A stretch of DNA of 49,313 bases from Nanobdellota archaeon (lineage in GTDB: Archaea; Nanobdellota; Nanobdellia; Woesearchaeales; JBHPGL01). Location: contig JBHPGL010000001.1 in the NCBI GenBank assembly GCA_042570655.1, forward strand, positions 1 through 49,313, given 5' to 3'. Position 1 is the first letter of the stretch; every line of letters begins with the position of its first letter. This document shows, piece after piece, positions 6,823 to 44,974 of this stretch. A model generated the notes under the pieces. The model saw only the letters and a list, made by a program, of their open reading frames with translations, made no database searches and was not told the origin of the DNA. The translations under genes were made by a program, and so were the position numbers.

Positions 6823-6837
6823 CGAAACATTTATATA
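6823..6837 (+). promoter_or_regulatory. BRE/TATA-like promoter box CGAAACATTTATATA (copy 2)
   Basis: Matches copy 1 at 14 of 15 positions and lies 54 nt downstream of it. The TATA box is TTTATATA at 6830..6837. This would place a start near 6860. Confidence 0.5.
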
Positions 6838-6859
6838 CTAGGGTGATTATACTACTCTT

Positions 6860-7172: not shown

Positions 7173-7345
7173 TTATGAAATAACAGAAAATCAGAGACAT
7201 TAGAGAAACAAAATTTGAAATAATAGACAACTGTGATTAAAATGAAATCAAAAATATTATCAATCATAAAAGACACAAATTTGGCTTGGGTCATAATAGG
7301 TATGGCAGTTTTATTTAAAATTCAGCAAATCCTAATAAAATAGAG

Positions 7346-8596: not shown

Positions 8597-8620
8597 AGAG
8601 TTCTATTATTAAGTTCTTAT

Positions 8621-8650
8621 TAAAAATTTAAAAGAAAATAAAAAAATAAA
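8621..8650 (-). terminator. oligo-T tract after the 1033-aa gene
   Basis: On the minus strand the stop is followed immediately by TTTATTTTTTTATTTTCTTTTAAATTTTT. Confidence 0.45.
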
Positions 8651-11752: not shown

Positions 11753-11812
11753 AATATCACCTTTTTTTTTAAATATTAATAATAATTTTAACAATGTAAA
11801 AAAGAGGCATAT

Positions 11813-11872
11813 ATAAAAGTTGCTATAAAAGTTGCTATAAATATTGTTATAAATGTTGTTATAAAAATTTGA
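11813..11872. repeat. 12-bp tandem repeat x5, degenerating (ATAAAAGTTGCT x2, ATAAATATTGTT, ATAAATGTTGTT, ATAAAAATTTGA)
   Basis: Read directly. It lies 60-120 nt upstream of the ATG at 11752 of the beta-helix gene, on the minus strand. Confidence 0.85.
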
Positions 11873-11986
11873 TAATTTAAGTTAATCAGGGTAAGAAAAA
11901 ATAATAGAATAAGAAAAAATTAATCTAATTTGCACTATACTTATTGTTGTTTCTTGTACTTTACTTATTACTATTTCTATCAGTTT

Positions 11987-12277
11987 TTATTTCATTGCTT
12001 CCAAACAAATTTGCTTAAATTCATCACTTGCTTTGTCACAATAACTTGCATCACCAGAATCCATCGCTAAAACAGTATAACAGTAATCATTTAATTCTTC
12101 AGCTGTCTTATCAGGGTTTTCAGCTTTAATGCCTTCAACACATTCGTCCATGGTTATTGAGTCATCATCTGTAACTGAATTACTGTTTACTTCTGAGGAT
12201 TGATTATTGTTGCAACCACCAATAATTAGTGTTAGTACTATAAAGACTAAGATTATTGCTGTAATTATCTTTTTCAT
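11987..12277 (-). CDS. small secreted / lipoprotein-like protein
   Basis: GAGGTGA lies 4 nt upstream of the ATG. The N-terminus MKKIITAIILVFIVLTLIIGGC/NNNQ has a lipobox-like IGGC. The mature part is acidic and has 5 Cys after the lipobox Cys. Confidence 0.6.
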   Translation of the reverse strand: MKKIITAIILVFIVLTLIIGGCNNNQSSEVNSNSVTDDDSITMDECVEGIKAENPDKTAEELNDYCYTVLAMDSGDASYCDKASDEFKQICLEAMK

Positions 12278-12317: not shown

Positions 12318-12343
12318 TATTTTTTAATAATAAAATAAAAAAT
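12318..12343 (-). terminator. T-rich tract directly after the giant-gene stop
   Basis: On the minus strand, TAA is followed by ATTTTTTATTTTATTATTAAAAAA. Confidence 0.4.
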
Positions 12344-15300
12344 TTAACAAAGTTCTCCTGCATCTTTACTTGTTCCTGAAATAACGGTAAAGTCTCCCAT
12401 TGTTAATTCAGGGTATATTGGTTGTGAACAAGAGGTATGGATTTTTATTGCCAGCACATCATCATACCAGGCAGATATTTCTGAGCTCATTGTATTGTCT
12501 GATCTTATTCCTGTAAATGAAATTTGTTGTCCTGTTGTTACAGATCCACTATAAAGCACTTTTTCTGCTCTTGCATCTTTCCCTTCATATATTGTTAAAT
12601 TTGTATTTAATCCATTATATTCAAGATTTAATTGGGTTACACCACCATGACACGCACAGCCATTATCTATAGCACATTTTGTTACTAATTCACCGCTTCC
12701 ATCTTCTACAACATTTGTGATTTCCCATCCGTCAATAAGTTGTCCTTCTGCTAAACATTTTGAACATGAGGTATGGATCTTTACATAATTTCCTTGACTA
12801 TCTGCCAATTCAGTATCTGATTTTATTGGATCAATAGTAATCAATTCACCTGCTGGTGAACGTACAGATAATGAATCAATACAGTTAGTATCCTTTTCAA
12901 AACATTTTGATGCCATTTCTCCTGTTGGATCTGCCAATTCTGTTACAACCCATCCATTGTCGTAAAAATTTTCAAACAGACAATCATTACATTCTGTATG
13001 GATAGATTCTGAGTTACCTTGGTTATCTGTAAATGATGTATCTTTTAATATTGCTGTTGCTGTCAATTCTTGTCCTGTAGGTGATCTTACTGTTATTGTA
13101 TCAAGGCAGCTTTCATCAGAAGTAGATGCACATTTTGCAACTAGTTTACCTTCTTCATTCTCAATAACATTATTAATTGTCCATCCATTAGTCATAAAAC
13201 CGTCATATAAACATCGTGAACAAGATGTATGGATTTTTACATAATTGCCTTGACTGTCCCAAAACTCTGTGTCAGATTTAATTGGATTGACAGTTATTGT
13301 TTCTCCTAATGGAGATTGCATTGTTAATGAGTCAATGCAATTGCCATCCTTTTCAATGCATTTTGCTTCCATTAATCCACTGGTATCAATAATGTCAATT
13401 ACTGTCCAACCTTCTTTTTGGTAGTTGTCAAAAAGACATTCATTGCATTCTGTATGGATTTTTACTGAGGATCCATAACTGTCAGTAAATATTGTATCTT
13501 TATCTCTTGCATTTCTTGATACTGTTTCGCCATTTGGCGATAATACTGTTACTGAATCTAAGCAACTTTCGTCGTGTGAATAACAATAGTTTGATAATCT
13601 ACCATCTTCAGTAATACTGGTTATTGTCCATCCATGGTTTTGGTCACCAACATCTATACATGTTCCACAAGATGTATCTAAAGTTAATGTTTCATTTGTT
13701 ATTGGGTCGATAAATGATGTTACTGTATTTGATACTAAATCGCCTACTGCTGAAAGAGGTATTCCTGAAGGTCCTTCAACTGAAATTTCACTTATACAAC
13801 TTGTTAAAGTAATATCTTCACAGTTTTTATTCTTGTTAAGATATTTCCATGCTTTCTTATATCCGTCGATCTTTTTCTTATTTTCTGTTTCTGATTCTGC
13901 TTTGTTGAACTTTTCTGTTGCCTTATCCTTATCACTTCCATCTGGAGCTTCGTTGATAGCTGTTAAAGCAATTAATCTATCTGCTTCAACTATGTCTTCT
14001 ATTAATGGAGCAAGTAATGGCACTAATGCTGGATCATTAATTTTTTCTAAATGATATACAGCTTTCTTTTCATCGTCAAACACTTTATGACCATGTTTAC
14101 AATGTAGATGCACTGAATCATACCAGTATATTTTGTCATCTCCACCAAGGACTCTGTTACCTAAACTTAATGTTAATTCTTTAATTGAATAATCTAATTC
14201 TTTTCGTGCTTTATCATCACTAGTTGTTAATGTTTTTAATATATCTAATACATCTTCTTTTAATGTACCTGAACAACCTTCATCAATTACACCATCACAA
14301 TCATCATCAACATTATTACAGATTTCTACTGCTGCTGGATTAATATTTGGATTATAGTCGTTACATTCTCCACCATCAATAATCCATGGACAGATTATGC
14401 TTCGTGTTTCGTCCCATGAAGCCCATTCTTCATCTGTGACATAAGAGTCTCCGTCAATATCTCCACAGAAATCGTCACAATCCAATTCGTAATCGTCAAA
14501 TGGATTACAGTTTTTATTTATTGGAAGATGGTCTGTGGAACAAATATCGAATGCGTCAGGATTTTCCAGTGGATCATAATCATTACAATCGTCGTCAACA
14601 ATTAAATATCCTGGAGGTAATTCGCAAACTATTTGGGTATTTGTTAAGTTACCGAAATCATCCTCGTCATTATCATAATATACTGTTATTGGAGGTAATT
14701 CATCGCAATTATCTATTAATTGACCGTTAATACATTCAAGGAGTCCTGTATTAGCACAGAAACCTAAACCGCAATGGGTTACTGAAGGTTCATATTCGTC
14801 ATCAATTATTCCATCACAATCATTATCTATTCCGTTACATATTGCATCTAGTTCACCTGGGTTAATATCAGCATTATTATCGTCACAGTCAAAATTACTA
14901 TAATAATCGTCTAAATCATTGTCAATATCAACTTTAATTATTTCTGATTTAATAGTTTCAACATTACCTGCAATATCAATTGAATGATACCTTACATAAT
15001 ATACACCAAATGTTGACATATCAAATTGGCCGTCATAAATTTCATTAGGTACGCATGTTCCTGCTTGATCAACACAATATTTTATTACATCAATTTCTGA
15101 AACTGCATCTGTTGCTGATAATGAGACTAGTGCTGGAGAATAATACCAATCGTCATAAGGTACATCTTCAAATGTTCCGTCAACTGTGATAGTAGTTACA
15201 GGCGGTGTTATATCCACTAAGATTTGAACTGTATCAAATGATGTTAATCCTGCTAAGTCCCAGCATTGTACTGAAAGGTTATGATAACCTTCAGGTATTG

Positions 15301-18300
15301 TTAAAGTTGCTGTTGCTGTACCTGAAACTAAACCATCCCCTGCCATTTCTTGCCATGGAGCGTTATCATATCTTGCTTGACAATTAACTTCATAAGTATT
15401 TCCATAATCAGCTTCAACATATATTGATTGTGTTGTAAACATTTGTCCTGCATTTGGAGCAATAATACTTACACCTGGTTGTTCTGTATCTACCTTCTTA
15501 CATATTTCATTAGATATTGAATAATGTTCAAGATTATCATATGCTCTTAACTGATAACAATATTCTGTATCTGTGAATAAACCTGTATCAACAATTGATA
15601 ATGCAGATAGGTCTCCATTCTGTTGAGTATATGATTCAGTAATACCAGCTGCTGAGTCGGCTGTTGCTTTTCTCCACAACTCATAATGACTTAATCCTGA
15701 ATTATCAGGTAGAGGCAAGTCTTGTACAGCTATCCATGATAAGCTAATATTACCACTTGTACTCCAAAGACCTGTTGGATCTGTCACTGATAATGTTGAT
15801 TGTTGTGGTTCACTTAAATCAATCTTAACAATTGCTGATTTAGTTAATTCAGCATTTCCACCAGGTACATAACCTGAATTATCAACACTATAATATCTTA
15901 TATAATTAATTCCTTCTTGACTTATAGGTACAGGACCTGTATACATATCAGATGGTAAACATGTATCTAATTGATCAACACAATAATATGTTGTTATTGG
16001 ACCACAGCTTTCAATCGGATCAGTTGCTGTCAATGTTACTGAAACTGATGAACCTTGCCAATCTGATAAGGCGTTATCAGATGTTGTTGGTGCTGTTTGA
16101 TCATTTTCATCAACTAGTATATTACAATTATCATCAATTAAATTACATACTTCGTCTGCGCCTGGATTAATATTTGCATTTGTATCGTCACAATCTTCTA
16201 AATCAGGTATTGGACATGAGGATACGTCTGTACCTGCTGCACCATAACCATCTTCATCATTATCTTCACATGTCAGTTCTGGACATCCACCATTAAATAA
16301 TGGACCTGCTTCGTTTGGACAATCGTCACATACATCGCCTAAACCATCTAAGTCTGTATCTATTTGATTTGGATTTGGATCTGTTGCACAATTATCTGGA
16401 GGTTCTGGAATTCCGTCATCATCGTCGTCAGGATAATCTGTCATATCGGATACAACGAATTTACCTGTCCATCTCCAATTCTTAGCTGCACACACACCTT
16501 GGTCTGCATCACAATAATATGTGATTTCTTGCCATTGGCCACTTGTTACATTAAACCAGAACATTACAGGTTCTGTACCTTCTTGATTTTTAGTTTTTAG
16601 ATAAACTAAAACATTTCTATCTGGTGTATGTTGGTTTTCTGGACCGATACTATACACAGCTGACATTGGTATACCATATGGGAATGAATAAGATTCTGTT
16701 ACATATGCATAACCATTAGCTACATCTACACCTTGATTATCATATACCCAAGATGTATGGAACGTTGACCAACAATAAAGATATTTGCCTTGATAATATC
16801 GGCATTTTGCTTGATCATTTTTATGTTGGTTTTGCATATAGAATGCATCCAATTCATATCTGGAAGCAAACGGATCAAAATCACTTGCATCTGAAAACGG
16901 TGGATTATAGTTACCCCAAAAGTTTGGTAAACCTTGAGGATGTCTAATAATACTGCCTGTTTCTGGACTGGAATACCAGTAATCCTGGATATTTAACAGA
17001 TTAGTTGAATAGATTGTACCGTTAACCATATTGATTCCTTCATTAACTTTAAACGCTTGCATTCTATTAATCTCTGAATTGATTAATGGACCACCTAACG
17101 AATCAACGTAAGATGTTGATGTAAATTTAATATAGTTGTCATATGAATTGGTTGCATCTATTAAGGTTGAAATAAAATTATATTTACCTGAATAAATAAA
17201 GTTACCGCTACTGTCATCCAAGATAATAGCTGTTCCTGCATTATCAAGTATTGATGGGTCATAACCTTTTACACCTTTCTTATTATTCAAATAGATTGTT
17301 CGAATATCATTATCATTTGAATCTGGTCCGTAATAAATTCCTGCTGTTGTAAAGTTTGCAATGAAATTATAGTATAAGACTATTTGAGGATTTTCTTGAC
17401 CATTTTCGTATGACTTAATTGCTGTATCTGATTGGAAGATATGGCAACCAAACATTTTTATTAAATCTGTTTCAGGTGCTTCATCATAACCTAAAATAAA
17501 TGAATCTGTATCATAGTTACCTATGATCTTTGAACCTGAACAATAAAGTTCACTATCTACAATTACTGAAGTGTCTTCAGGAAGATAATATGTACCTGGA
17601 CACAAGACTGTTGGTTCTGTTATATGATCTGTATAATATTGGCCTGTTCCAAATGGTATTTTCTGACTTGTATTCAACACATAACATGCAGTTGCAACAG
17701 CATAATGATCGTTACAATCTGATACTGTAAAATTACACCAATTATTTTCACAATCTGCTGGATAAGGACTCCATATTTCTGTTTCTGAATCTAACACATA
17801 AGTGTATACTTCTGAAGGTAAGAAACCATTTGGATATTTTACCTGTACAAACATACCGCTTGAACAGTCTAAATCTTCACACTGTGAATCTTTAATATCT
17901 AAACTTGCTGCTCTTACTACTACTGATGAACCTATCACATCGTTAGGGAAGATTTCTTCCAATAAGACATTTGTATCATCTGCAAATGTGCCTGCAGGTA
18001 TTTGTGCCCTAACTCTATTTGCACCTGTTCTCATTAATCTTGATTCGCCTGATGGAATATTTCTTTGTCCTTTACTATCAATACACCAATTTGAAGCATC
18101 TTCTACACAGATATCTTCTGCATTAATTATTCCGTCATTATCATAGTCTACATCCATTTCTGGTGGAATTACTGTTAAACATTGTGGATCTGAAGGTTCG
18201 CCTGGAACTATGACAACTGGTTCAGTTGTATCACATACATCACCCAATCCATCACCATCTTCATCTTCTTGACCTGGATTCCATATACTTACACAATTGT

Positions 18301-21300
18301 CACAAGAATCACCTATATCATCTTCATCTTGATCTGGTTGCGGACCTGGTGGGATCCATGCTTTCATATCAAACAGTAATCGACCATTATCTTTTCTCAT
18401 ATTTGATACTTCCCATTTTTGATCTGGATCGTCTACCAATCTCATACATGTTGGACTAAATCCTCCTGGCATTCCTAATGCTGAAATATCTGTTAATAAA
18501 CCTACAGGATATACTGGACCGTCATAATCTTGACCTTGTAAATCATCATACATGTATTGTGTGAAGAAGTTTGCATCTACATTTGGATCGTCACAACTGA
18601 AATACATTTGTGGTACTGGACCGTCTCCATTCCAATCACCCATCAAAGCTAAATTAAATGCAAATTCTACGCCAAGTGATTCATTAAAGTCACCAATTAC
18701 ATTTAATCCCATATCTAAAAGGAAATCAATGGTATTTGATGCTGTTAATCCTGGTGCTGTTGGAGGTGGTAGTTGTTCATATACACATTCATCACATTGA
18801 TCACGACATTGTTGATCATCACTATCCCATTCACAAGGATATTCTGCTGAATCTTGATTACCACAATGATCGGTATATAAAAAGTAACTATCTTCACATA
18901 ATCCTTCATTATTTCCAATTGAACCACAATCTTGGAAATTATTTCTTTGACTGCAATCTATTGGGGCATCTCCTCCTGGAACTTCTACAAACCACAACAC
19001 TGCATCTGGATTATCTCGTAAATAATAACCTTCTGATTTTAATAATTCGTCTGAAGGTATCTGACCACTAAATAATCCGTTTATATCTACTCCTACATCT
19101 AAATCGCCAGGTAACATTTGAACAAAGAAGCCTGGTGTACCTGGATTATAAATAGATGGACAATTGTCACATTCATCACCATAACCATCTGTTAAAGTTG
19201 CCCACATACAATTGTCAGCTGCACAAGTTTCTTCATCGCCATGCGAATAACAAGGGCCTACTATTGGTGGAAGATCATAAATAAAGTTGTCAATTGTTAC
19301 AATACTATTTTGATATTCGCCAAAGTCAATTAAACCAACAATTCCATAATCATATGGTAGTTCAAATGAACAGATTTCATTTCCATCTATCAAGAAATGA
19401 AGTTCTCCATTGGTTTGTAAAATTGCTACTGTTCCTGATGCTGTTGCTAGAGATTGATCACAAACTACATTTGGACCGAAATCTCCAAATCCGTCAATTA
19501 CTAGAACTGCTGGCGATCCTCCATAATCTGCAACTAATTCTATTATAATTGGTCTTGCACCGTCTCCTAAACCATCGGATATTATAAGACCTGGCATTGG
19601 TCCTTGACTATCAACTGAAATATCGGCTTGGAAAATAAAGTTTTGTGTAAAGTCTCTTATACTCGAATCTAACAATAAGACTAATGGGAATCCTCCTGCT
19701 TGCGCTGTTCCACTTATTTGTAAGTAACCATTAGACAAGTCAGCATTTAAACTTGGATCAATTTGACCGCCTGATAAAGAGTCCATATAATCAAGATCGT
19801 TGAAATCTTCAATTAATGTATCTACATCTGGTATTTGACATGAAGTTAATGCGTCTGAATCTGCTTGACCTACTTCAGAATATTGATATGCGTCGAATGT
19901 TGCTACATTATTTGTAAAGTCAATGTTTCTAATTTCCCATTTTAAATTTGGATCTGCTTCTGATCTTACACAGAATTGTTCTGAGCCTAAATCAAAGAAT
20001 AATCCTGGAGGCATATCATTTCCACCTTCAAATTCTGTACACTGATTTCCTTGACAATCGCCTGAACAACATGTACTTCCATCAGTACAAGAATCGCCAT
20101 TTCTTCCGCATGTCTGCATAAACATAAATTCATCAAATGTATAATAATCGTCTTCTTCTGCATCTTCACATCCTGGGAATTCTGGTGGACCATCATTTCC
20201 TGGAGTCATTGCAAATTCTAATCCTTCTGATTGATCCCAATCGCCTGTTATTGGTGGTAAGAATGTTCCATCTAAAACTCTCCACCCCATTGAGGATGCA
20301 ATTATTTGTTGATATTCGTCATCAAAACTACAACCATTTCCATTATTATAACATTGAGTATTATCGCCATCCCATTCACAAGTATTGAATTGATTGTCAT
20401 TTTGGTTCCATTCATACGCATTATCACAATCTTGTTCTGGTACTTGATCGCAACTTGCATAACCTAGATCAACTACATCTTGTTTATTACCGCAATAATC
20501 ATCATTTGGTACTGGTAAATACCATAGATAATGATCTGCATCTAACATTTGACCTGCTGATCTTTGTACATCAAATATACCTGAATTGAAATCTATAGCT
20601 GAAGTTAATGGCATTGTTGTTATTTGTGTAAATGGTTCTGGTGCTGCATTAAAGTTGTCTGGACATAAGTCACATGCATCTCCATATCCATCTGAAACTG
20701 AAAAGATCTTACATTGATCGTGTAATTCACAAGTTGTTTCTGGATCTTGGTTTTCACAAATTGCTCCGTCGTCAAACGGACTAACATATGTATAATTTTG
20801 TCCTGGACCATTTGCTATGAACACATCTCTATATATTTCATATTCAAATGAACCTTCTCCTGCTTTATCTGCTATTGCATCAAGGAAAGCATCTGGATCA
20901 ATTGCATAGAATGTTGCTTTTAAAGTCATGAAACCTGCATCAATTTCCACAATCATTAAATCAAGATTTTCTGTTCCATCAACACCATATCTTGGATTGT
21001 TTTGACTTGGATCTAATATTAGATCATAATCAGTTATGATTTCAATGCCTTCATCTCCTTCAATATTGGTTACATCTAATACATTATGTCTTGGATCTCC
21101 ATCGCCTGAGAAATCATATGTTTCTCCATTATAATCTACATAGGCAACTGTCATTCTATACGCATCATTACCATAATCATAGACTAATTCTGGTTCATAA
21201 ATTAAACCTTGACTGATTGTTGGAATGCCTCTATTTGTACAAGCTGCAAATGCATCGCTATCTGCTTGATCTGGATTGTAATCTAATGGACAATTATCAA

Positions 21301-36300: not shown

Positions 36301-39300
36301 CATTATCTGAAGCGCCGTCAAAGAATGTTATATCTAATGAAGCGTCATTATAAATTACATCTTGATCATCTGCTGCTAATGAAATATATAAGTCTTCAAG
36401 TGCTCCTAATGAATCTTGGTCAACAAACAGAGCTGCTCCACCATTATTTTTAATCACACCTAAGAATTTACCATTTGCAGATTTAATTTTATATTGATAA
36501 TCTAAATTTGTTGGAGTTGTTCCTGTAAATGTTGCATCTGTAATATCTGTTCCTTGAGGTTGATCGATTGATGCACAACCACCACAGTTGTTTACATCTG
36601 TATTTGAATCAACATCACAACCTGTTGCAGGGTTAAAGTCGCAATCTAATAAACCTGCATCACAATCACAAACATTACTACAACCATCTCCACTAATTAA
36701 ATTTGAATCGTCACATTGTTCAAACAATCCACCTTGAATAATTCCGTCACTACATTCTTCAATTAGACATGTTGCTGAACAACCGTCTTCTGCAATTGTA
36801 TTACCATCATCACATGTTTCTGCACATTCAGTTGTTGTATCTCCACAAACATTATCAAGTCTTGTACAATCGCCTTTACAACCATCACAATCAATGTTAT
36901 TACCATCATCACAAGTTTCTGGACCGTTTGTAGTTCCGTCTCCACAACTTTCTGTAGGTACACAAGCGTTCCATCCGTCACATGTTGGATTACATGTTTG
37001 TGATCCTGGATATCCGCCTGTTGTACAACCTTGACTGTCTCCTAATTCACAGACTTCTCCAAGTCCACCTTGAATAATTGAATCTCCACAAACTTCATCT
37101 TTACATGTTGATGAACAACCGTCTTCATTAATTAAATTACCATCATCACATTCTTCACCAATTCCAGCTTGAATTGTTCCATCACTACAAAATTCTATGA
37201 TACATAAATCTGAACAACCATCTCCTGAAATTTGATTACTATCGTCACATTCTTCACCAGGATCTTGAATTCCATTACCACATGCGTCTGCGCATGTCAT
37301 TGGAAGTAAATCATGGCCAAGGTATGGTTCGTAATCGATTAAACCTGGATTTTCTCTCAGTTCGTTTTCAATACTGAATGGACCTGTACAATGTTCAATA
37401 TTAAAATAATTGTTTTCAGCAACAATATTATCTGCTTGTGCATTAAATATATTACCATTATGATGATAAATCTGGTTATATTGTATGGTATTTCCTGTAC
37501 TTGTACTTAACAAATATATACCTGCACTTGGAGCCCATGATGCTGGTGTTGTTCCTGTTGCAGTTATATTGTTATATTCTATTATATTATCTCTGGAACC
37601 TGATAAAGATATTTGTCTACCTACTGAAGAACCATAAGGAACTCCATTATCTATCATTGTATTCGAGATAATAGAGTTATTAATAGCGTTAAACATTTCT
37701 ATTCCCCATTTTGTAGCATTATATATATAGTTATTTTGTATCAAATATCCGTTAGATAAAGTTAATTCTATATTAGTAACTAAGCTATTTAATATCTGAT
37801 TGTTTTGAACGATGTTTGGAACTACATCTATAATATTTCCTGCTCCAGATAAAGCAAGACCAACATTATTATCTTCAAGTAAATTATTTTCAATAACAGT
37901 ATTTCTATCACCATTTAATTCAATTCCTATATCCAAACCTTTCAAATGACAATTCCTTATTGCATTATTTGCAAGTTCAATACGGTTAGATGTTCGTTCT
38001 TTACCATAACTTAAAATACCCACACCTTCAGGTGTTACATGATTAATTTCTTCAATTTTATAATCTTGACAATCTAATGTCAAATCAACACCTTCTAATA
38101 TAATACATTGAGATATAAGATCAGGTGAATCCCAATCAATATTAGCAGTTAAGAATATATCAATATTATCTTGGATAATATGTGTACAACTATTAATGTT
38201 TAAACAATCTACTCCTGGAATTGAATCTGAACCGTCACAATCTTGATCTATTCCATCACCACAATAATCAGTTGCTGTTGGATTAATATTTGGATCTGCA
38301 TCATTACAATCTGTTGTACCTGGATAACCATCATTATCTGCATCACTTGCTTCTGTATATGTTGCACCTAGGAATGGAATAAAGTCAATTGATCCTGTAG
38401 TTGTTGCATCAATTTCAGGTTCTGTTGTTAATCCCCAATAATTGTATTCTGCATCAATTTGCCCAGATAATGTTTCATGTATGTTTTGTGTAACACCTAA
38501 ATAAGTATTATCATAAATATTATTTAAATGAACTTCTGCATCACCTGTATTAATTAAAATTCCTTCAGGTGAATTTTGATAAATGTCGTTCTGGATAATT
38601 TCATTTCCAGTTGAAAATATTAAATAAATTCCTGCATGTTGGCCGTGTGTGCCATTTCCATTATCAAATATTTTATTTAATTCAAATAAATTATTATTAC
38701 TTGATGAAGCAATTATACCTTTATCAGCTGCATTTTTAATTGTATTATTATATATATAATGGTCGTCTTGTCCCATTTGGATATTTTCTCTAAATCCATC
38801 AATAATACAATTTTTAACAGTTGTTCCTGAATTTGAGATTGTTTGAATTCCACCACCTTCACCAGTCAGAGCTGCTGTAATTGTATGGCCTTGACAATCT
38901 AAAACTGCATCATCAGCATAAACTTCAAAACATTGAATTGCATTAACATCATTTTGTAAAGTATATATACCTGTTCCTCCTAATTTTCCGCAAGTTGTAA
39001 TTGGTCCTGGACATAAACTTCCTTCATCAACTGAACCATCACAATTATTATCAAATGTGTCACAATAAACTTCTGGAATACCTATAGATGAACCATCGCC
39101 TGCATCACAGTCGCAAAATGCATTTCCATTTGTAGGATATATGTTTGCATTTATATCATTACAATCAAATGCTCCTAATGGACATTCTGGAACTGAACCT
39201 AAATATTCCATTGAACCATCACAATAATCATCTCCATCATCGTCACAACCTTCGTTAACACTACCATCACAATTGTCATCATAATTTGAGCCATCACATC

Positions 39301-42300
39301 TTTCTGGTTTACCTGGATTAATATTTACAAGTGCATCATTACAATCTATTGGTCCACATGATCCTCCTTCTACATAATAATTATCATTGTCAACATCTGT
39401 ACAACCTACACAAACACTATCTTCATCAACTGAACCATCACAATCATTATCAAGACCGTCACAGATTTCTGCTGAACCTGAACCAATTAACGGATCTGTA
39501 TCATCACAATCATCAATTCCACACGCTGCTCCATTAGTACTAATAGTATCTCCATCACCATCGCTGTCTACACATTGTGGTGTACAATCAATTGAAACAC
39601 CGCCTGGATATGGTAAGTGTAAAAATGGTTCTCTACTAATTACTGTTATATATCTAATATAACTATCAATTGTTGCACAGTCTGTTATTCCCCAATAATT
39701 ATTTTCTGCTGTAAGTTGATTTCCATAAATTGCAGGATCTTGATTGTCTATATGGTATCTTGGTCCTGGTGGAAGAACTGTCCAATCAAAATTATTCTGT
39801 GAAATGTTTGCTCTTGGAGTTTGAGTTAATGTATAAATGCTTCTTTGTTGTGTAATAAAATCATTTCTTAAAATTTGTGCAACTGTATTATCTGGATACA
39901 TTACTGAATGATACCCTCTAAGCATTATACCAGTATTACCTAAACTTGTAGGATGATCGTTAAATATATTGTCAGAGATTTCAGCAATTATATAAAGATC
40001 AATTCCTATATAAGAATCAAAATCATTTCCTGAAATAATGCTGTTTCCATTTGCACCTTTAAGCATATAAATCCCATTATATCCACTATTTTGAGTATAA
40101 TAAGAAGGTGTAAAAGTAAGGAATGAATTATTAATGATTTGGATGTCAGTAATATATCTGTCTGCTGGATCTGATCTTACATATATTCCTCTATAAAAAC
40201 CTGAGATATCACAATTTTTTATTGTTACGTAATCTACATCATCATTGATATCAATTCCAACATCATTTGATGCAGGATCGTTATAAGAACCACCATACCC
40301 ACTTCTATAAGATAAATAAATATTGTTATCTTGACAATCTAGAACAACATTATCTGCTGCAATTGTCATACATGATCTTTTACCCTGAATATCTGCTGAA
40401 ACAGTATAAGTTCCTGGTTGATCTATTAATGTACAATCAACTAAATTGTTACAACCTTCGTCAATTAAACCATTACAATTATCATCAAACACATTTCCAC
40501 AGATTTCTGCTGCACCTGGATTTACTGCGCCTGCATTATCATTACAATCGTTATCACCTAATTTCATCATTGAATTATAACCTGGTCCTCCACAATAACC
40601 GTCTCCATCTTGATCATTATTTAGACTTGAAGGACATTGGTCACAAGCATCGCCAACTCCATCACCTGCTGCTCTTACAAAAATTGAAACTGCGTCAACA
40701 CCATAATATTGATCATAATAAACCCGCCAATTTGTCACATATACTTTTCTACCATTACTATCAACTGCAATCCCTATTGGACCTGTTAATTTATCTTGAT
40801 TTGAACCCCATTGTAAATTACCTTCTTCACCGAATTTTTCAATGAAAGCACCTGTTTTTGTAAATACAAAGATTTTATTTACACCAGCATCTAATGCTTG
40901 ATTGGTATTACCTAAAGCAATATAAACATTGCCAACATCATCAATCGCCATATCTTTTAACATATCATCTGCATTAAGCATTCCTAAAGTACCTGGATTA
41001 TCACCAACTACATCCCATCTAGTAATAAATGTACCTGTTGAATCAAATACATGAACTTTGGAAGAACCGCCATCTAAGATATAAACATTATCATCACTAT
41101 CTAATTCAATATCTTTATAATCGGGGATTTCTCCTAATTTTAAACCAACATTAAAATTCCATTTTGAAATGAAGGTTCCTGTTGAACTAAATTTTTTTAC
41201 TGCTAAATTTGCACTATCTAAAATAATAACATTTCCTAATGAATCTGTAGTAATTCCTGCTGGACTAAATTGGTTATCAGCTGATCCGCATGAACCGAAT
41301 TCTGAATCATAATTTCCATTTGCATCAAAAATAATTACTTTACATGTTGCTGCATCTACAGCATATACATAATTACCTGAAGGACTTACTGCAATTTTAC
41401 CAATACTAGTAAATAAACCATTTCCAAAAGTTATTGCAGATGATCCTCCTAGATTTGTTCTTGTAATCCAATCATTATCATAATCAGTAATATAAACATA
41501 ATCAAGGTTACTTACTACTATACCATATTTTTTACCTGCAACTGGAACGTCTGAATGAATATATGAACCATCACTATCTCTTTGATTTGGGTTTGGATCA
41601 TCAACACAATTATCATTAATATCAACAATACCATCTGAATCTGAATCTAAACAATTTGGATCAAGGTCGCAATTTGAATCAGAACAATCAGAAGTGCTGT
41701 CACAATCATTATCTAATGTATCTGTACATGAAGTTTCAGGAGTTTCTGTTGGTGTTCCTGGTGAACAAGCTGTTTCAACGCCTGCAACACAAGTTGAACC
41801 TGTATTACCTGCTGTACATACACCTGGTAAATAACAAGCTGTGTCTGAAACATAATCTTCATCTGCTGGTCCGTCACAATCATTATCAATATTGTTACAA
41901 GCTGCATCTGGTGCGCCTGGATAAATGGTATTATCGCCATCATTACAATCAACTGGACCGCATGGTCCTCCTGTAATATTATAACCATCAACATCACCAT
42001 CTACACATGTAACTCCTGTTAATGCAACTAAAGAACCGCCAGGATATTGTGAATCATAAACTGGTTCAATATAAACTGTACCTTTTGATGGATCTGTTTC
42101 AGAATCATATATTTTTGGAAGAATATCGTTTCCTGTTGTAGTACCCCAATAATTATGTGAAAAGTTAACATCAGTTGGATTTTCATTGTATACAAGCCAA
42201 TCAATATTAGCATGATCATATAAATTATTATTAATTATATCACCAAAAGTTGAACAATCTCCATAAGCCTGAATAATATATGCCTTAGAAATTGTACCTT

Positions 42301-44905
42301 CATCTGTTGGCTGGTAAATTTTATTTTCTTCAATTAGGTTATTTGTTTGAGAAGAACAAGTTATTCTAAAACCTTCCAAATTAAATCCACTAATAGTATT
42401 ATTATAATAAATATTATTACTTCCAACTGTTATAATACCTGAATTTCCTCCTTCAATAAGATTATGTGCAATATAATTTCCATTTTTATTTGTATCAGCT
42501 GCAGGACTAATACCTAAACCACCGCTTGAACTATAAATCTTATTATATATAATAGTGTTGTTATCATTATAATGTCTTAGTGCAATTCCTCTCACAGCAT
42601 TTATAATTGTGTTACCTTCATATGTATTATTGTAAGGATTGTTTGGATTAAAATTTCCATAACTAAATATACCATTATTTGAATAACCTGTAGTAATATT
42701 AATAATGTTATTTCTAATTATATTGTGTCTTGTTGCTCCACCAGTTTGAATTACTCCAAAATCAGAAAGTGATTGATCTTTTGACATTCCATAAAAATAA
42801 TTATTTTCAATTAAGTTATATGATGGAGCACCCATATAAAGTGCATAATTTTGAGCTACAGGAAGGAATGTATTATCATGAATGTAGGAATTTATACCCC
42901 TAGCTGAGATTCTAAAAGTGACATCACAATTTCTTACTTCTGTATTAGCAATACCTGTTGAAATATCAACATGATATAATGAATTACCTTGACAATCAAT
43001 TGTAATATCATCTGCACTTACTGTACAAGTACCTGTTATATCACTTGTTAAGATATATGATTCGCCTGCAGTTGTTAAATCTCCGCAAGAGAATAATGTA
43101 ACTGGACAACCATTTCCTGGATATACTGCTATATTTGTATCATCACAATCGCCGCCGCCATTTGGACAAGTAGGAGGGTTGCCGGCAAATCCCATGTTTT
43201 CGTCACAATAATCATCTCCATCATCATCGCAACCTTCATCAATTCCGCCTACACAATTATTATCTATTCCATCACAAATTTCTGTTTGACCTGGATAAAC
43301 TTGATCATTACCATCGTCACAATCTGTTGGTGAAGTGAATCCATCTGAATCACAATCAGAACCTTCATCAATATCTCCATCACAATTATCATCTATATAA
43401 TTACATGCAATTTCTGATGCTGCAGGATTAACTGCTGCAATTGTATCGTCACAGTCTCCTCCTGCAATTGTACAACATTGTGTTGCTGTTTCAGAACATG
43501 AATAAGAAGCTGCACGGGTAAATGAAGCATCACAATAATCATCTTGATCATCATCGCACCTATCTAAAGTCATTGCAGGATAGTTTAAGAATGTATTATC
43601 CCCTGTTGCTGGATTAAGATCATAATAACCACTTGGAGCTGTTGGATTTCCATTATCACAATCTGAATCTATTCCGTCACCGCATGTTTCTGGTGCTCCT
43701 GGATAGATATTTGGATTCGCATCATCACAATCTTCAGCTATACCATCTGGTTCAGTAGGACCAAAAACACAACCAGATCCTGCAGATACTAGATCGTTAT
43801 CATTATCTTTACAAGGACCGTCATGTACATAATCAATTTCTGCACTTCCAATAACTTTAATATCAAAAACATCTGTTGGGGAATCTAAACCTTCAATATT
43901 AATATAAACTTTATCATAATCATTTGAACTTACCTGAACAGTTCCAACTAAAGAAGATGTTCCTTGTTTGTAAACTTCTAATATTGCAGAACCTTTAATA
44001 TTAATATCTATAATATAGTCATTATCTAAAACTTCTTCAAAAGTTGCTCTAATATATTGACCATTGTTAACAACTTGTGATAAACCATCATTTTGAACAC
44101 TTAACTCATCAAAAACATTTGCAATTAAAGAATAATCTGAATTTAAATATTCAGCATTTATAATCTTAATATCAACTTCAGCATAACCAGGATCGCCTGG
44201 TGTTAATGTAAAAGTATAATCTTGACCTTCAACTATATCTTGTAATTTTACCCAGTTACCATTACATGTTTCAGTATCATAATCCCATTCTGCACATTTC
44301 ATTAATACATCTCCTTGCGCAGTTGCAGTAACTGTAGCAGTTGTGAAATCAACCTGCGGGTTGATTGCGTAAACATTATTAAATCCATCTTCTTGGACTC
44401 TTTGATCTAATTCAACAAAATCTTCAATGTTAGAAACAACGTCAACATCATTAAATTCTATTGACTTAACTTTATGTTGTTTTGGATTAACTTTAACCTT
44501 ATGTTTTCCAGGAGCAACATTTGCATTATGAGTTTTTCCAGAACCAGAATAAGTAGCTCCATCATTAATTAATAAATCAGAATCAATTAATTGGCCGTCA
44601 TGATTTTTTGCGGCACCATTAATGTCAACCGTACCTTGTGCAGTAACTTGACCGCTAATTGCTGATCCTCCACTAACAATATTATTTGAATCTGAATCGA
44701 TTGCTGTATTTAATAAGGATATCATTTTATTTGCTAAGCCACTCAAGAAACTATTTGAGTTATCTTGGCTATCGGGGGACATAGCTGACGCTAGACCTAT
44801 GTTACTTACTGATAAGAGGACGATGGTAATTAGTGTGAATAAATTTTGGAAAACCACACTTGCACTTGATTTTAAATTTTTCTTTTGTCCTCTTTTTTTA
44901 TACAT
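12344..44905 (-). CDS. giant secreted mosaic surface protein, 10,853 aa (putative adhesin / glycan-binding fibre)
   Basis: A single open frame of 32,562 nt. GGAGGT lies 8 nt upstream of the ATG at 44905. The N-terminal signal or anchor is [27 protein letters not shown]. The protein shows coherent domain-like sequence throughout, and every other track ORF in this span is a short low-complexity shadow. I saw no C-terminal TM segment and no protease-type motif (HExxH or GDSGG). Confidence 0.9.
12347..13830 (-). repeat. giant protein: C-terminal array of about 6 ~75-aa units carrying the IHT[SE]C motif, organised as a 152-aa A-B super-repeat
   Basis: A units have KIHTSCS[RK]CL and B units have [KS]IHTECN[ED]CLF. 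The phase marker TATGGAT at 12772 and 13228 gives an exact 456-nt super-period. The protein ends ...[33 protein letters not shown] with no hydrophobic anchor. Confidence 0.75.
13830..14280 (-). other. giant protein: the only clearly alpha-helical, K/E-rich, Cys-poor segment
   Basis: Contains [34 protein letters not shown]...[19 protein letters not shown]...[26 protein letters not shown]. Confidence 0.5.
14930..16100 (-). other. giant protein: Ig-like / FN3-like domain run
   Basis: The FN3-like segment is [27 protein letters not shown]...[16 protein letters not shown]. It is flanked by Ig-like units such as [24 protein letters not shown]...[11 protein letters not shown] and [20 protein letters not shown]...[12 protein letters not shown]. 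Confidence 0.55.
16900..17610 (-). other. giant protein: beta-helix module 7 (divergent)
   Basis: Cap [15 protein letters not shown] ... end [13 protein letters not shown]. Confidence 0.5.
18340..19195 (-). repeat. giant protein: unknown ~285-aa module, copy B
   Basis: Starts [15 protein letters not shown]... and contains [40 protein letters not shown] and LLFDMK. These are collinear with copy A. Confidence 0.6.
19275..19830 (-). other. giant protein: LamG / concanavalin-like domain (tentative)
   Basis: Contains [26 protein letters not shown]...FIFQADISV...GLIISDG...[13 protein letters not shown]...VTIDNFIYD. Confidence 0.45.
19850..20700 (-). repeat. giant protein: unknown ~285-aa module, copy A
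   Basis: Starts [15 protein letters not shown]... and contains [40 protein letters not shown] and ATFDAY. It is a paralogue of copy B. Confidence 0.6.
23270..23890 (-). repeat. giant protein: three tandem ~70-aa Cys-rich repeats; the two distal copies are nearly identical at DNA level
   Basis: Phase-equivalent points are at 23270, 23480 and 23687 (periods of 210 and 207 nt). Copies 23270..23479 and 23480..23686 differ by 4 substitutions plus a small linker indel. The protein unit is [37 protein letters not shown][LI][12 protein letters not shown][YN][10 protein letters not shown]. Confidence 0.85.
24990..25630 (-). repeat. giant protein: irregular Cys/Trp knot-like repeats (C...C.n...C[FY]W), about 6 units
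   Basis: Examples are [42 protein letters not shown] and [17 protein letters not shown]. Confidence 0.5.
25790..27560 (-). repeat. giant protein: array of about 10 tandem ~50-aa, 8-Cys modules (unassigned family)
   Basis: Consensus is TCPDGSC..GEEC..DC..E.yC.DG.DND.DT.TDCDD.DC...P.C. An example is [48 protein letters not shown]. Two variant units ([13 protein letters not shown]..., [13 protein letters not shown]...) are interspersed. Confidence 0.75.
28400..29160 (-). other. giant protein: beta-helix module 6
   Basis: Cap [15 protein letters not shown] ... end [11 protein letters not shown]. Confidence 0.6.
29720..30935 (-). repeat. giant protein: three tandem 135-aa discoidin / F5-F8-type-C-like domains (exact 405-nt period)
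   Basis: The phase marker TCATTTCTGT recurs at 29731, 30136 and 30541. The protein copies share AANL[IL]DGD..T.GF.TDQ.L.GK[YF]LQLD[LF]GAGNEQ.LI.W[DE][21 protein letters not shown]...[18 protein letters not shown][KR]V. Confidence 0.75.
31650..32720 (-). other. giant protein: second propeller-like repeat region (unassigned family)
   Basis: A roughly 45-aa periodicity with ...G..I.Y....g.....vYDi.tG....l. Examples are [56 protein letters not shown] and [27 protein letters not shown]. Confidence 0.5.
34070..34895 (-). other. giant protein: beta-helix module 5
   Basis: Cap [15 protein letters not shown] ... end [19 protein letters not shown]. Confidence 0.65.
36570..37290 (-). repeat. giant protein: Myxococcus-type Cys-rich repeats (C-x-DG-...-E-x-CDDGN-...-DGCS-x-C), about 6 copies
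   Basis: Examples are [56 protein letters not shown] and [29 protein letters not shown]. Confidence 0.7.
37330..38215 (-). other. giant protein: beta-helix module 4
   Basis: Cap [15 protein letters not shown] ... end [20 protein letters not shown]. Confidence 0.65.
38340..39010 (-). other. giant protein: beta-helix module 3
   Basis: Cap [15 protein letters not shown] ... end [15 protein letters not shown]. Confidence 0.65.
39600..40440 (-). other. giant protein: beta-helix module 2
   Basis: Cap [15 protein letters not shown] ... end [17 protein letters not shown]. Confidence 0.65.
40680..41570 (-). other. giant protein: NHL-repeat beta-propeller
   Basis: About six repeats of the type GNVYI.D..N..V.VF...G.F...W. 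Examples are [47 protein letters not shown] and [23 protein letters not shown]. Confidence 0.7.
42040..43100 (-). other. giant protein: beta-helix (NosD/CASH-like) module 1
   Basis: Starts with the cap [15 protein letters not shown], continues with N/I/G-rich PbH1-like repeats, and ends with the cap [18 protein letters not shown]. Confidence 0.7.
44783..44905 (-). other. giant protein: N-terminal signal peptide or signal anchor
   Basis: A basic N-terminus ([12 protein letters not shown]) is followed by a roughly 24-aa hydrophobic stretch ending in ASA. Confidence 0.7.
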
Positions 44906-44974
44906 TAAAATCTACCTCCGATTATAATTTTAATTTTATGAATAGAATGAATTCTAATATTTTTAAATTTTACA

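Follow-up and report, generated by a model that had tools for sequence, protein, structure and literature searches.

A 10,853-residue exported mosaic protein of a Woesearchaeota-type archaeon is a candidate calcium-stiffened adhesion fiber

The 49,313-nucleotide window (the whole stretch of DNA that was analysed) carries a complete coding sequence for a giant protein of 10,853 aa on its minus strand (12344..44905, closed by a single terminal stop codon). With a probability of roughly 55%, the product is an exported, extremely acidic, disulfide-rich adhesion fiber of ~1.17 MDa that is stiffened by Ca2+ and sits at the cell surface of a DPANN archaeon of the Woesearchaeota type. An adhesive or glycan-binding fiber had already been proposed in the initial annotation of the sequence, and this remains the best reading since binding modules are present and no enzyme family is detected. 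All features of the giant gene described below lie on the minus strand, and their window positions are given in brackets after the residue numbers.

The open reading frame is a genuine gene. A GGAGGT Shine-Dalgarno-like motif can be read 8 nt 5' of the ATG (44914..44919), and an in-frame stop two codons 5' of this first ATG means that the start cannot be extended. The stop codon is directly followed by ATTTTTTATTTTATTATT, and the T-rich tract at this place (12326..12343) is a candidate archaeal oligo-T terminator by its sequence. The Shine-Dalgarno motif, the N-terminal signal or anchor and the T-rich tract had been listed in the initial annotation for the single long frame, and all were found. 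The per-codon stop probability on the minus strand is 0.082 and an open frame of this length is expected by chance at ~1e-401; the longest rival frame in the span, also as annotated, is an antisense one of 340 aa (26614-27636) opposite an acidic repeat array. Relative synonymous codon usage (RSCU) of the giant gene correlates with that of the flanking genes at 0.90-0.97 in each 1,000-codon block, and its GC3 is 0.10-0.18 along the full length. Internal DNA repeats are all short and at most 93% identical, and two form tandem arrays (210 nt x2.9 and 405 nt x2.9). The uniform codon usage and the limited identity of the repeats do not suggest a chimera. The frame could still be an artefact, either because misassembly, or the collapse or expansion of repeats, joined two or more genes or strain variants, or because a decaying pseudogene is open by accident. 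The locus has no independent assembly, the giant protein and the neighboring alanyl-tRNA synthetase (AlaRS) are both missing from the public collections searched, and the copy number of the two tandem arrays could be miscounted. However, 10,853 open codons at an 8% stop frequency can neither arise nor persist by chance, and codon usage, GC3 and repeat identity are as expected of one continuous gene. Additionally, the module order is colinear with that of an independent protein (P0246) over 2,700 aa, and an artefact is thus very improbable. An Rfam search of the whole window gave no match.

The giant protein has a mass of 1.17 MDa and a pI of 4.05, and is rich in Asp (11.9%), Gly (10.0%), Asn (8.2%) and Cys (5.4%, an even total of 584 residues). 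Composition, pI and the N-terminal signal agree with its earlier description as an acidic, Cys-, Asp-, Asn- and Gly-rich secreted mosaic. Residues 1-41 (44783..44905) form a Sec-type signal peptide or an uncleaved N-terminal anchor with a basic n-region, a hydrophobic core and an A-S-A motif. In a Kyte-Doolittle scan the sole hydrophobic, TM-like segment lies at about residues 13-44 and no second TM element is seen. A cell-side anchor is not evident if the signal peptide is cleaved; the relatives described below end in a C-terminal TM anchor. Searches of all segments against Pfam and NCBIfam returned no enzyme or ATPase family, and neither HExxH nor Walker A motifs were found, which bears out the earlier statement that no catalytic motif is obvious. 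For about 74% of the residues there is no match to a curated family, and an enzymatic domain that escaped recognition may lie among them.

The N-terminal half is a chain of binding-type modules. After a head that matches no family (residues 42-392; 43730..44782), the first of six cassettes combining MopE-like repeats with a right-handed beta-helix occupies residues 529-959 (42029..43321; internal HMM 158 bits, MopE by Pfam). A six-bladed NHL beta-propeller (residues ~1128-1390; 40736..41524) follows, which had been recognised from the sequence and is confirmed by Pfam NHL/DUF5128 and by PDB matches to the NHL domains of Thin and TRIM2 (E 1e-22). Cassette 2 (residues 1454-1771; 39593..40546; internal HMM 213 bits), cassette 3 (1931-2188; 38342..39115; Pfam NosD and internal HMM) and cassette 4 (2200-2538; 37292..38308; Pfam Beta_helix and internal HMM) lead to four to five copies of myxo-type cysteine-rich acidic repeats (TIGR02232/DUF4215; ~2540-2750; 36656..37288). 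Cassette 5 (3300-3625; 34031..35008; internal HMM and a weak Pfam NosD match) is followed by the thrombospondin type-3 (TSP3) calcium-binding repeats predicted earlier (~3625-3703; 33797..34033), which match Pfam TSP_3 (PF02412) at 51.7 bits, above the gathering threshold, and the PDB structures of COMP (3fby, E 5e-27) and TSP-2 (E 4e-23). Internal repeat comparison shows that the surrounding span (29132..35632) contains four copies of a ~180-aa module (residues 3092-3288, 3662-3853, 4414-4587 and 5068-5258), with a fifth at residues 8900-9082 (17660-18208). Each copy consists of a TSP3-type prefix and an unplaced ~130-aa beta domain with an 11-letter ending, and the prefix alone is recognised in the PDB. 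Three tandem discoidin domains (F5/8 type C, NedA-like galactose-binding; residues 4657-5061; 29723..30937) are as first described: PF00754 scores 64.3 bits against a gathering threshold of 28.2 in three stretches, and the three 135-aa copies correspond to the 405-nt DNA repeat (copies 79-86% identical). Cassette 6 (5251-5499; 28409..29155) is found by the internal profile only (135 bits).

Seven beta-helix modules had been counted initially, of which six hold. Two score above cutoff in Pfam (PF13229 and PF05048 NosD, 99 and 92 bits), a third falls below it (18.9 bits, cutoff 23.6), and the internal profile finds all six. The seventh candidate (9085-9480) was rejected since its hhalign probability of 0.2% equals that of the negative controls. 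The estimate of at least 15 MopE-like repeats is matched by 15 full and 2 partial copies in the internal HMM search; PF11617 (Cu-binding_MopE, gathering 27 bits) scores 147.8 bits over the first 5,000 residues and 76 bits in the C-terminal part. The repeated motif is C-DD-x6-PG-x2-E-x-C-x-DNDCDG. Beta-helix modules can be polysaccharide-cleaving enzymes instead of binders, and six of the NosD/pectate-lyase type could belong to an attack protein that cleaves host envelope polysaccharides through them or through undetected domains in the unannotated 74%, the remainder serving for targeting. Such a depolymerase would follow the presumed action of phage tailspikes or of the Omnitrophota 'archaeovorins', and predatory Omnitrophota giants do combine binding modules with degradative domains. 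Yet Pfam and NCBIfam detect no glycoside hydrolase, lyase, peptidase, transglycosylase or methylase family, there is no HExxH motif, and PDB sequence searches return TSP3 and NHL only, making this function improbable.

The center of the protein holds ten ~50-aa repeats of 8 Cys each (residues 5816-6360; 25826..27460), and an eleventh copy lies at residues 6689-6738 (24692-24841). A novel Cys/Asp domain was considered for this array and is rejected because the array matches NCBIfam NF033662, the acidic double-disulfide repeat (32-aa unit; 153.4 bits, E 8e-46, curated cutoff 41), in 11 stretches within residues ~5800-6800 and in a weak extra copy at 1054-1085. About 330 proteins carry NF033662. 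At least five module types had been called unplaceable; part of this material, namely this array and the TIGR02232/DUF4215 block, belongs to curated families. As judged from its profile, the NF033662 array is homologous to the Ca2+-binding C-rich domain of teneurins. Teneurin C-rich domains are the only PDB matches of the 11-repeat profile (Ten4 7plp, E 1.5e-7 and 3e-4; Ten2, 8e-3; Ten-m, 0.017), and Foldseek superimposes the modelled repeats on the teneurin domain with an rmsd of 0.7 A over 31 residues. Confidence in the AF2 model of three repeats is only moderate (pLDDT 62), and it is therefore the sequence profile that mainly carries the teneurin link. When the repeats are mapped against the published teneurin-4 Ca2+ ligands (PMC9058538; alignment A2), E835, D840, D843, N844 and D845 correspond to E21, D26, D29, N30 and D31, and D847, D851, D854 and D856 to D33, D37, D40 and D42. 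Eight of these positions are invariant across the 11 repeats, and E21 is nearly so. Teneurin C838, C852, C857 and C863 are kept as C24, C38, C43 and C49, but the C858-C869 pair is missing; this leaves two disulfides instead of teneurin's three (1-3, 2-5, 4-6), in agreement with the name 'double-disulfide'. The likeness, in profile and structure, covers the 3' half of each repeat, and each repeat has an extra 4-Cys N-terminal half. Teneurin has one C-rich copy, between the EGF repeats and the TTR/FN-plug/NHL/YD superfold, while the giant has 11. Membership of the giant among teneurins or bacterial teneurin-like proteins (TLPs) is rejected since the YD shell is absent; Pfam and NCBIfam searches detect an NHL propeller and no FN-plug or RHS/YD family. 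The homology connects a curated but functionally unstudied prokaryotic repeat to the solved three-calcium C-rich domain of animal teneurins, and predicts ~3 Ca2+ per NF033662 repeat.

The giant might instead be a surface protein that scavenges or sequesters copper or another thiophilic metal, given the 17 MopE-like repeats, whose Pfam name is 'Cu-binding_MopE', and the high cysteine content. However, conservation in the repeats falls on Asp, Asn and Glu in a TSP3- or teneurin-type Ca2+ geometry and not on His, Met or free Cys, and in the MopE-like repeats on acidic residues together with Cys in a disulfide-like pattern. The cysteines are even in total and invariant in position within repeats, and the NCBIfam name implies that they are structural. 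A metal-scavenging role would therefore be surprising.

Further along the chain, residues 6361-7220 (23246..25825) are again Cys-, Gly- and Asp-rich, with 3 MopE-like repeats, three 70-aa Cys repeats (7011-7220) and no other family match. They overlap a Pfam-dark third (residues 6895-9600; 16106..24223) that is colinear, at about 24-53% identity, with residues 731-2523 of P0246, a 2,927-aa protein from ENA metagenome contig k141_4919490, which carries archaeal genes. This third has just two real relatives, P0246 itself and P0250 (2,397 aa; MFC1697572.1, 'LamG domain-containing protein [Nanoarchaeota archaeon]'). They share with the giant the unannotated modules J (7639-7790), A (7893-8040) and B (8072-8373 and 8573-8886), Cys-rich knots, TSP3 and MopE repeats, and an N-terminal signal or hydrophobic segment. 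Both are 3.7-4.5 times shorter, however, and end in a C-terminal TM helix and basic tail that the giant does not have, while lacking its NHL propeller, discoidin triplet, 11-copy acidic array and DUF7467-type C-terminus. An AF2 model of modules A and B was of low confidence (pLDDT 58.5), and no Foldseek match to it had E<0.5 or a probability >0.33. A LamG-like domain proposed at first is not confirmed, as neither Pfam (even at E<=1, residues 8390-8545) nor PDB sequence searches match it, although such searches could miss a remote jelly roll. The FN3/Ig-like domains stood in part: two OmpL47-type beta-barrel domains (residues ~9612-9697 and 9922-9992; 14930..16072), also seen as an internal repeat, flank an FN3-like stretch and score 72 bits against a cutoff of 40, but no Ig family exceeds threshold and the Ig/FN3 matches within residues 9600-10000 are all below it. 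The only Lys/Glu-rich segment of the protein (10210-10365; 13811..14278) is unplaced and, by its sequence and composition, probably helical. Five ~76-aa 4-Cys tandem repeats (10369-10749) and a DUF7467-like terminal domain complete the chain (12347..13801); matches of the 76-aa repeats to designed WD40 proteins were dismissed as spurious, being sums of individually insignificant PDB matches with the wrong period.

Homology searches used 2,000-aa and 545-aa query segments of the giant protein. Near-full-length homologues, had they been described, would have ended the claim of novelty; homologues cover at most 18% of any 2,000-aa segment, and no match listed exceeds ~3,500 aa or comes from a named haloarchaeon. 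The top matches for the N-terminal 2,000 aa and the acidic array are bacterial MopE-related surface proteins, among them MYXO-CTERM proteins of Myxococcota, and related proteins from unbinned metagenome contigs. These proteins of 350-3,500 aa share single modules with the giant (MopE repeats, NosD-type beta-helices, acidic double-disulfide and myxo cysteine-rich repeats) but not its overall architecture; those with a named source are bacterial, and some carry MYXO-CTERM or T9SS-type sorting signals. When metagenomes were scanned with six peptide patterns drawn from a unique stretch of 1,200 aa, the generic TSP3 pattern alone matched, and five unique 8-mers were absent. No orthologue was found by these searches or in 80 related loci.

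The organism is, as judged by its AlaRS gene, a Woesearchaeota-type DPANN archaeon, which bears out an earlier conditional guess. This archaeal equivalog (45319..47901, plus strand), divergent from the giant gene, serves as the taxonomic anchor, and its closest relatives are from Woesearchaeota/Nanoarchaeota MAGs. Downstream of the giant gene and co-directional with it (8651..12277, minus strand) are two envelope-type ORFs, one encoding a 96-aa lipoprotein-like product (11987-12277) and the other an exported beta-helix protein of 1,047 aa (8651-11794). The latter has a TM segment and a basic tail at its C-terminus, and its beta-helix is homologous to the cassettes of the giant (hhalign probability 95%, E 3e-8). 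An S_layer_C-domain protein is also encoded downstream on the same strand. A synteny comparison with related MAGs, suggested in the initial annotation, did not recover the giant gene: no open frame at 80 related AlaRS loci exceeds 1,225 aa, and tblastn with the giant and all flanking proteins gave 0 matches there. The gene cluster could belong to a structural envelope or matrix system in which the giant is a self-directed coat, sheath or biofilm component and not a host-binding adhesin. Such a role has been proposed for halomucin of Haloquadratum walsbyi (~9,159 aa; Bolhuis 2006, as cited in PMC10266531), likewise a giant secreted archaeal protein but from a free-living haloarchaeon, in which it would be protective and mucin-like. 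Acidic Ca2+-binding repeats also suit the cross-linking of a matrix, and the nearest NCBIfam TSP3 model is a myxobacterial cell-cell cohesion protein, although it scores only 82 bits against a cutoff of 350. However, lattice or coat proteins do not typically take the form of a single, very long mosaic that lacks periodicity and carries diverse lectin-like modules, and the giant is absent beside AlaRS or elsewhere in the 80 related genomes. This lack of conservation is more in keeping with an interaction protein that evolves fast than with a core component of the envelope, and we regard an envelope role as unlikely.

As an adhesion fiber, the giant would be carried across the membrane by its N-terminal Sec-type signal, which may be kept as an anchor, or the mature protein may be held by non-covalent contacts. 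Outside the cell, disulfides and the loading of dozens of units with Ca2+ (the 11 acidic double-disulfide repeats at ~3 Ca2+ each by homology, the 17 MopE-like and many TSP3-type repeats) would rigidify the chain into an extended rod. Ligand-binding modules along the rod (six beta-helices, the NHL propeller, three discoidin domains, the OmpL47-type barrels and several unplaced beta modules) could then provide multivalent binding to glycans or proteins of another cell or surface. The most likely target would be the host of this presumably episymbiotic archaeon, and host attachment has been assigned to such proteins in the DPANN literature (PMC10266531; PMC7414124).

Export is additionally suggested by N-glycosylation sequons. 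The giant protein contains 29 N-x-S/T sequons where 117+-9 are expected, a depletion of about fourfold, and two neighboring signal-peptide proteins have 0 each against 5.4 and 9.7 expected. Cytoplasmic neighbors match expectation. The depletion is absent in P0250 and only mild in P0246, and one large neighboring protein in a related locus is sequon-enriched. It appears to be a signature of exported proteins at the giant locus and is counted as support for export. Sequon avoidance offers a cheap, sequence-only marker for the proteins that this organism exports, and it may reflect an N-glycosylation system that is active and subject to unusual selection.

The giant adds an unusually large member to an already known class of proteins and, contrary to what had first been supposed, sets no size record among archaea. 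West-Roberts et al. (2023, bioRxiv 10.1101/2023.11.21.568195) reported archaeal proteins of >10,000 aa, mainly from Asgard archaea, and a 9,409-aa nanohaloarchaeal protein had already surpassed halomucin, the size yardstick of the initial annotation, as the largest from cultivated archaea (PMC10266531). What is known of how large archaeal proteins can be is therefore unchanged. This nanohaloarchaeal protein, SPEARE-type SVXNc_0300, has an ectodomain proposed to bind the host (PMC10266531). Both it and the giant are DPANN genes for a very large, acidic (pI ~4), signal-peptide-bearing ectodomain. SPEARE consists mostly of ~75 tandem Ig-like domains and WD40 propellers, unlike the modules of the giant, and closes with a TM helix followed by a cytoplasmic VirB4/TraG-like ATPase (PMC10266531); the giant lacks both. 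A second VirB4 ATPase gene lies downstream of SPEARE (PMC10266531), where the giant has the lipoprotein-like ORF and the beta-helix protein. SPEARE membership is rejected due to the different topology and the missing ATPase. The second category of Omnitrophota giants combines dockerin with TSP3 repeats (West-Roberts et al. 2023, bioRxiv 10.1101/2023.11.21.568195), and these are, like the giant, non-periodic mosaics of >10,000 aa with TSP3 repeats, long beta-helices and carbohydrate-binding modules. Another likeness is that the organism is ultrasmall and depends on a host or prey, as is presumed for the archaeon, but Omnitrophota giants are bacterial and reach 30,000-85,000 aa. Glycosyl hydrolase, glycosyltransferase, peptidase, methylase and NUDIX domains characterise their main class, the 'archaeovorins', and Pfam and NCBIfam detect no such domain in the giant.

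A more far-reaching and distinctly tentative reading joins these observations into the largest DPANN protein yet seen, a Ca2+-rigidified host-capture tether accompanied by undescribed selection against surface N-glycosylation. If true, a Woesearchaeote would possess a lineage-specific tether several hundred nanometres long, comparable to the cell diameter, and the fourfold sequon avoidance would be specific to exported proteins, where it may keep binding faces bare or economise on glycans. Woesearchaeota are abundant, almost entirely uncultivated DPANN archaea whose host associations are poorly known. With a typical DPANN genome taken as ~1 Mb, the giant gene would represent roughly 2-4% of the genome, a share that makes it a strong candidate for a cell-cell contact molecule. 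The giant protein thus provides a concrete target for the study of cell-cell contact in Woesearchaeota.

The 10,853-aa giant protein is encoded by a single open reading frame at 12344-44905 on the reverse strand, which runs for 10,853 codons with one stop, at its terminus. An in-frame stop two codons before the ATG rules out any earlier start, and both signals described in the initial annotation are present: an SD motif (GGAGGT, 44914-44919, 8 nt ahead of the ATG) and a T-rich tract (ATTTTTTATTTTATTATT) directly 3' of the stop codon. Given a per-codon stop probability of 0.082 for the base composition of this strand, the chance of a frame remaining open that long is about 1e-401. The longest competitor is indeed a 340-aa ORF (26614-27636, forward strand), antisense to an acidic double-disulfide repeat array rich in Asp and Cys codons. 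Heavy use of GAT, GAC and TGT codons in the array leaves the opposite strand without stops and thus, judging from codon content, the 340-aa ORF is a composition artefact and no gene. Codon usage is uniform along the giant gene; each of eleven 1,000-codon blocks has an RSCU correlation of 0.90-0.97 with the pooled flanking genes, and GC3 of the blocks is 0.10-0.18. The internal DNA repeats are short and diverged; the best two arrays hold 2.9 copies each, one of a 210-nt unit (23253-23866; 88% matches, up to 93% between pairs) and one of a 405-nt unit (29725-30892; 79-86%). The copy number of these two arrays could be slightly off in the assembly; nothing within the sequence suggests a chimeric join, and we infer that the ORF is continuous. 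That the whole frame is an assembly artefact is very improbable.

The gene for AlaRS (45319-47901), divergently transcribed from the giant gene, matches the archaeal equivalog TIGR03683 with 871.5 bits (cutoff 744.7). When one genome per GTDB species is considered, the best AlaRS relative is 71% identical and most are 53-64% identical, and the closest belong to MAGs labelled Woesearchaeota, Nanoarchaeota/Nanoarchaeia and Aenigmatarchaeota. The organism, which the initial annotation treated as DPANN-like only conditionally, therefore belongs to the Woesearchaeota type of DPANN archaea and has no close sequenced relative. Automatically submitted TPA MAGs named "uncultured Methanosarcinales archaeon" (L001, L003, L006, L010 and others) carry AlaRS that are 53-71% identical and interleave with those of Woesearchaeota/Nanoarchaeota MAGs; judged by this gene, the names given to organisms in that batch do not look reliable.

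Directly downstream of the giant gene lies a 96-aa lipoprotein-like ORF (11987-12277, reverse strand) whose signal ends ...LIIGGC. A 1,047-aa beta-helix protein (8651-11794, reverse strand) has a signal peptide, a C-terminal TM helix and a basic tail, and further downstream the same strand encodes an S_layer_C-domain protein with a signal peptide. The annotated TTG start of the 1,047-aa protein probably lies upstream of the true one; the signal peptide begins at an internal Met. Its beta-helix is homologous to those of the giant protein (hhalign probability 95%, E 3e-8). The envelope-type downstream genes and this homology therefore indicate that the giant gene heads a small envelope gene cluster. 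A self-directed component of the envelope or matrix is a possible but unlikely reading of a protein encoded in such a cluster.

Elsewhere in the window, a HEPN-domain gene and a nucleotidyltransferase gene (144-692 and 679-1269, both reverse strand) overlap by 14 nt. The nucleotidyltransferase is of the MNT type with an N-terminal wHTH and the HEPN match is below the Pfam cutoff; the arrangement is the one usual for HEPN/MNT toxin-antitoxin pairs. Convergent with AlaRS, and overlapping its end by 4 nt, a gene at 47898-49250 (reverse strand) encodes a protein of 450 aa that has an Mrr_cat restriction-endonuclease domain at its C-terminus. The ORF-free gap at 6357-7345 contains a GC-richer island (~6860-7200, forward strand; 0.37-0.40 versus 0.09-0.25 around it) that folds into five stable hairpins (MFE -92.8 versus -64.2+-4.9 for shuffles, z -5.9; reverse strand z -2.8). 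It matches no Rfam family even at E<=1 and contains no tRNA, and is a candidate for an unclassified structured RNA.

The giant product (1.17 MDa, pI 4.05) is acidic and rich in Cys, Asp, Asn and Gly, as first described (D 11.9%, G 10.0%, N 8.2%, C 5.4% or 584 Cys), with only 3.3% K+R. Its modules were identified through curated families (Pfam, NCBIfam) and PDB sequence matches. Where at least 15 MopE-like repeats had been claimed, 15 full and 2 partial copies are found. Six of the seven proposed beta-helix modules are supported, as cassettes in which a right-handed beta-helix follows a MopE-like repeat (residues 529-959, 1454-1771, 1931-2188, 2200-2538, 3300-3625 and 5251-5499), while the seventh is not; Pfam detects two of these beta-helices above cutoff and a third weakly, and an internal profile detects all six. 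The NHL propeller (residues ~1128-1390) is recognised by Pfam and by PDB matches to Thin and TRIM2 (E 1e-22), the TSP3 repeats (strongest at 3625-3703, others scattered) by a match to COMP (E 5e-27), and the three discoidin domains stand in tandem at residues 4657-5061. The curated families add four to five myxo-type cysteine-rich acidic repeats (DUF4215/TIGR02232, residues ~2540-2750). There are also two OmpL47-type beta-barrel domains (residues ~9612-9697 and 9922-9992; 72 bits versus a cutoff of 40), and at the C-terminus a DUF7467-like domain follows five related repeats of 76 aa with 4 Cys each. A ~180-aa module, present in five copies, combines a TSP3-type prefix with an unplaced beta domain. 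The proposed LamG-like domain finds no support, and the FN3/Ig-like domains are represented by sub-threshold matches. Curated-family matches cover only ~26% of residues, leaving roughly three quarters without a fold assignment, and Pfam gives zero matches over residues ~5100-9500. Consistent with the initial annotation, the protein has no Walker A, HExxH or enzyme family. An attack protein would be expected under one alternative to bear a depolymerase, but degradative families are entirely undetected and this reading is improbable.

Among the module types that could not be placed initially, a Cys/Asp array has now been assigned. A ~50-aa repeat with eight invariant cysteines occurs eleven times, at residues 5816-6360 (positions 25826-27460) and 6689-6738, with the consensus xTCPxGxCxxxEECxxDCxxExYCxDGxDNDxDTxTDCDDxDCxxxPxC. 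The unit is not recognised by Pfam; it corresponds to NCBIfam NF033662, "acidic double-disulfide repeat" (153 bits, 11 stretches). About 330 carriers of this unit occur in a collection of 5.8 billion proteins, mostly hypothetical proteins of 350-950 aa, and those with a named source come mainly from Myxococcota, plus Planctomycetota and one CPR bacterium (Candidatus Peribacteraceae; P0023, MDD4318746.1). In the CPR protein the complete 50-aa unit (~59% identity) adjoins DUF4215 repeats as in the giant protein, and the myxobacterial homologues are far more distant (~30%). This is a hint that modules have passed between ultrasmall bacteria and archaea that occur together.

Searched with a profile built from the eleven repeats, the whole PDB yields only teneurins (teneurin-4 C-rich domain, 7plp, E 1.5e-7). 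The AlphaFold model of the repeats (mean pLDDT 62, acidic halves 70-78) superposes on 7plp with an rmsd of 0.7 A over 31 residues. In the 1.5 A teneurin-4 structure, three Ca2+ are held by E835, D840, D843, N844, D845, D847, D851, D854 and D856 (PMC9058538). These ligands align, in order, with E21, D26, D29, N30, D31, D33, D37, D40 and D42, which are exactly the invariant or near-invariant non-Cys columns of the repeat. Of the six cysteines in teneurin the repeat keeps four, and it lacks the third disulfide, which agrees with the name "double-disulfide". By sequence and model, the prokaryotic repeat is evidently homologous to the animal C-rich Ca2+-binding domain and retains every Ca2+ ligand, from which a load of about three Ca2+ is predicted for each repeat and about 30 for the array at residues 5816-6360. 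The teneurin papers examined (including PMC9058538) derive the FN-plug/NHL/YD superfold alone from bacteria, regard the C-rich domain as like no other known fold and make no mention of prokaryotic homologues of it; thus the homology, a side result here, may be under-appreciated. The acidic, Ca2+-type ligand pattern speaks against the giant protein being a metal scavenger, a reading with very little likelihood.

The Pfam-dark third of the protein was compared exhaustively by HMMER (query residues 7621-8820) with 1.84 billion representatives. Nearly all of the 241 matches arise through one TSP3 stretch, and the one true relative is P0246, a 2,927-aa metagenome protein (E 7e-59) whose residues 731-2523 are colinear with residues 6895-9600 of the giant protein. 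Its 52-kb contig carries archaeal genes for an RFC-type clamp-loader subunit and an AsnC-type HTH protein. A second relative, P0250 (2,397 aa, MFC1697572.1), is annotated "LamG domain-containing protein [Nanoarchaeota archaeon]". Both share with the giant protein the unannotated modules J, A and B, but unlike it they close with a TM helix followed by a basic tail, an anchor that the 1,047-aa neighbour also has. A low-confidence model of A+B (pLDDT 58.5) matches no known fold. Upstream of P0246 lies another large gene (L136:1-5561, forward strand; 3,333 aa recorded, exceeding the fetched locus), of which the visible 1,852 aa have no detectable similarity to the giant protein; tandem large surface-protein genes may be common among these archaea. 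In a word-indexed search, residues 7251-9250 retrieved five matches at 1-4% coverage; the N-terminal 2,000 aa retrieved MopE-repeat proteins of 1,100-3,500 aa covering <=18%, and none of five unique 8-mers occurs in the metagenome contig collection. A comparison with 80 related genomes through their AlaRS loci revealed neither a giant gene nor any similarity there. The homology searches found no near-full-length homologue, the finding that would have refuted the novelty first proposed. By these comparisons the protein is a lineage-specific mosaic of widely shared extracellular modules.

The N-terminal signal or anchor sequence noted initially is the sole hydrophobic segment in the protein. N-x-S/T sequons are depleted fourfold (29 versus 117+-9 in 50-aa block shuffles), with the control tripeptides N-x-[AG], D-x-[ST], Q-x-[ST], N-x-[DE] and N-x-C at expectation. 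Sequons are absent from both neighbouring signal-peptide proteins (2791-5235 and 8651-11794; 5.4 and 9.7 expected) and at expectation in five cytoplasmic neighbours. The depletion supports, as an independent sign, an extracellular location. The relatives do not share such a strong depletion: P0250 is at expectation, P0246 is mildly low, and the large gene product next to P0246 even has an excess (132 versus 56 over the 1,852 aa visible). This suggests that selection in this particular organism acts against N-glycosylation of surface proteins.

That DPANN and other ultrasmall symbionts have giant surface proteins is well established. The SPEARE-type proteins of nanohaloarchaea reach 9,409 aa and consist of Ig-domain arrays followed by a TM helix and a VirB4-like ATPase (PMC10266531), whereas none of these features was found when tested for in the giant protein. 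Contrary to the initial annotation, it is not an archaeal size record because archaeal proteins of >10,000 aa, mostly from Asgard archaea, were reported before (West-Roberts et al. 2023, bioRxiv 10.1101/2023.11.21.568195). It is longer than the largest protein reported from cultivated archaea and may be the largest so far seen in DPANN. The gene is real and remarkable, and is one more case of an already known kind of protein. In the favoured reading, to which we assign a probability of roughly 0.55, the protein would be exported via Sec, its chain would be stiffened by Ca2+ and disulfides into a modular fibre, and its lectin-like and beta-helix modules would make it adhere multivalently, the most plausible partner being the host of a DPANN episymbiont.
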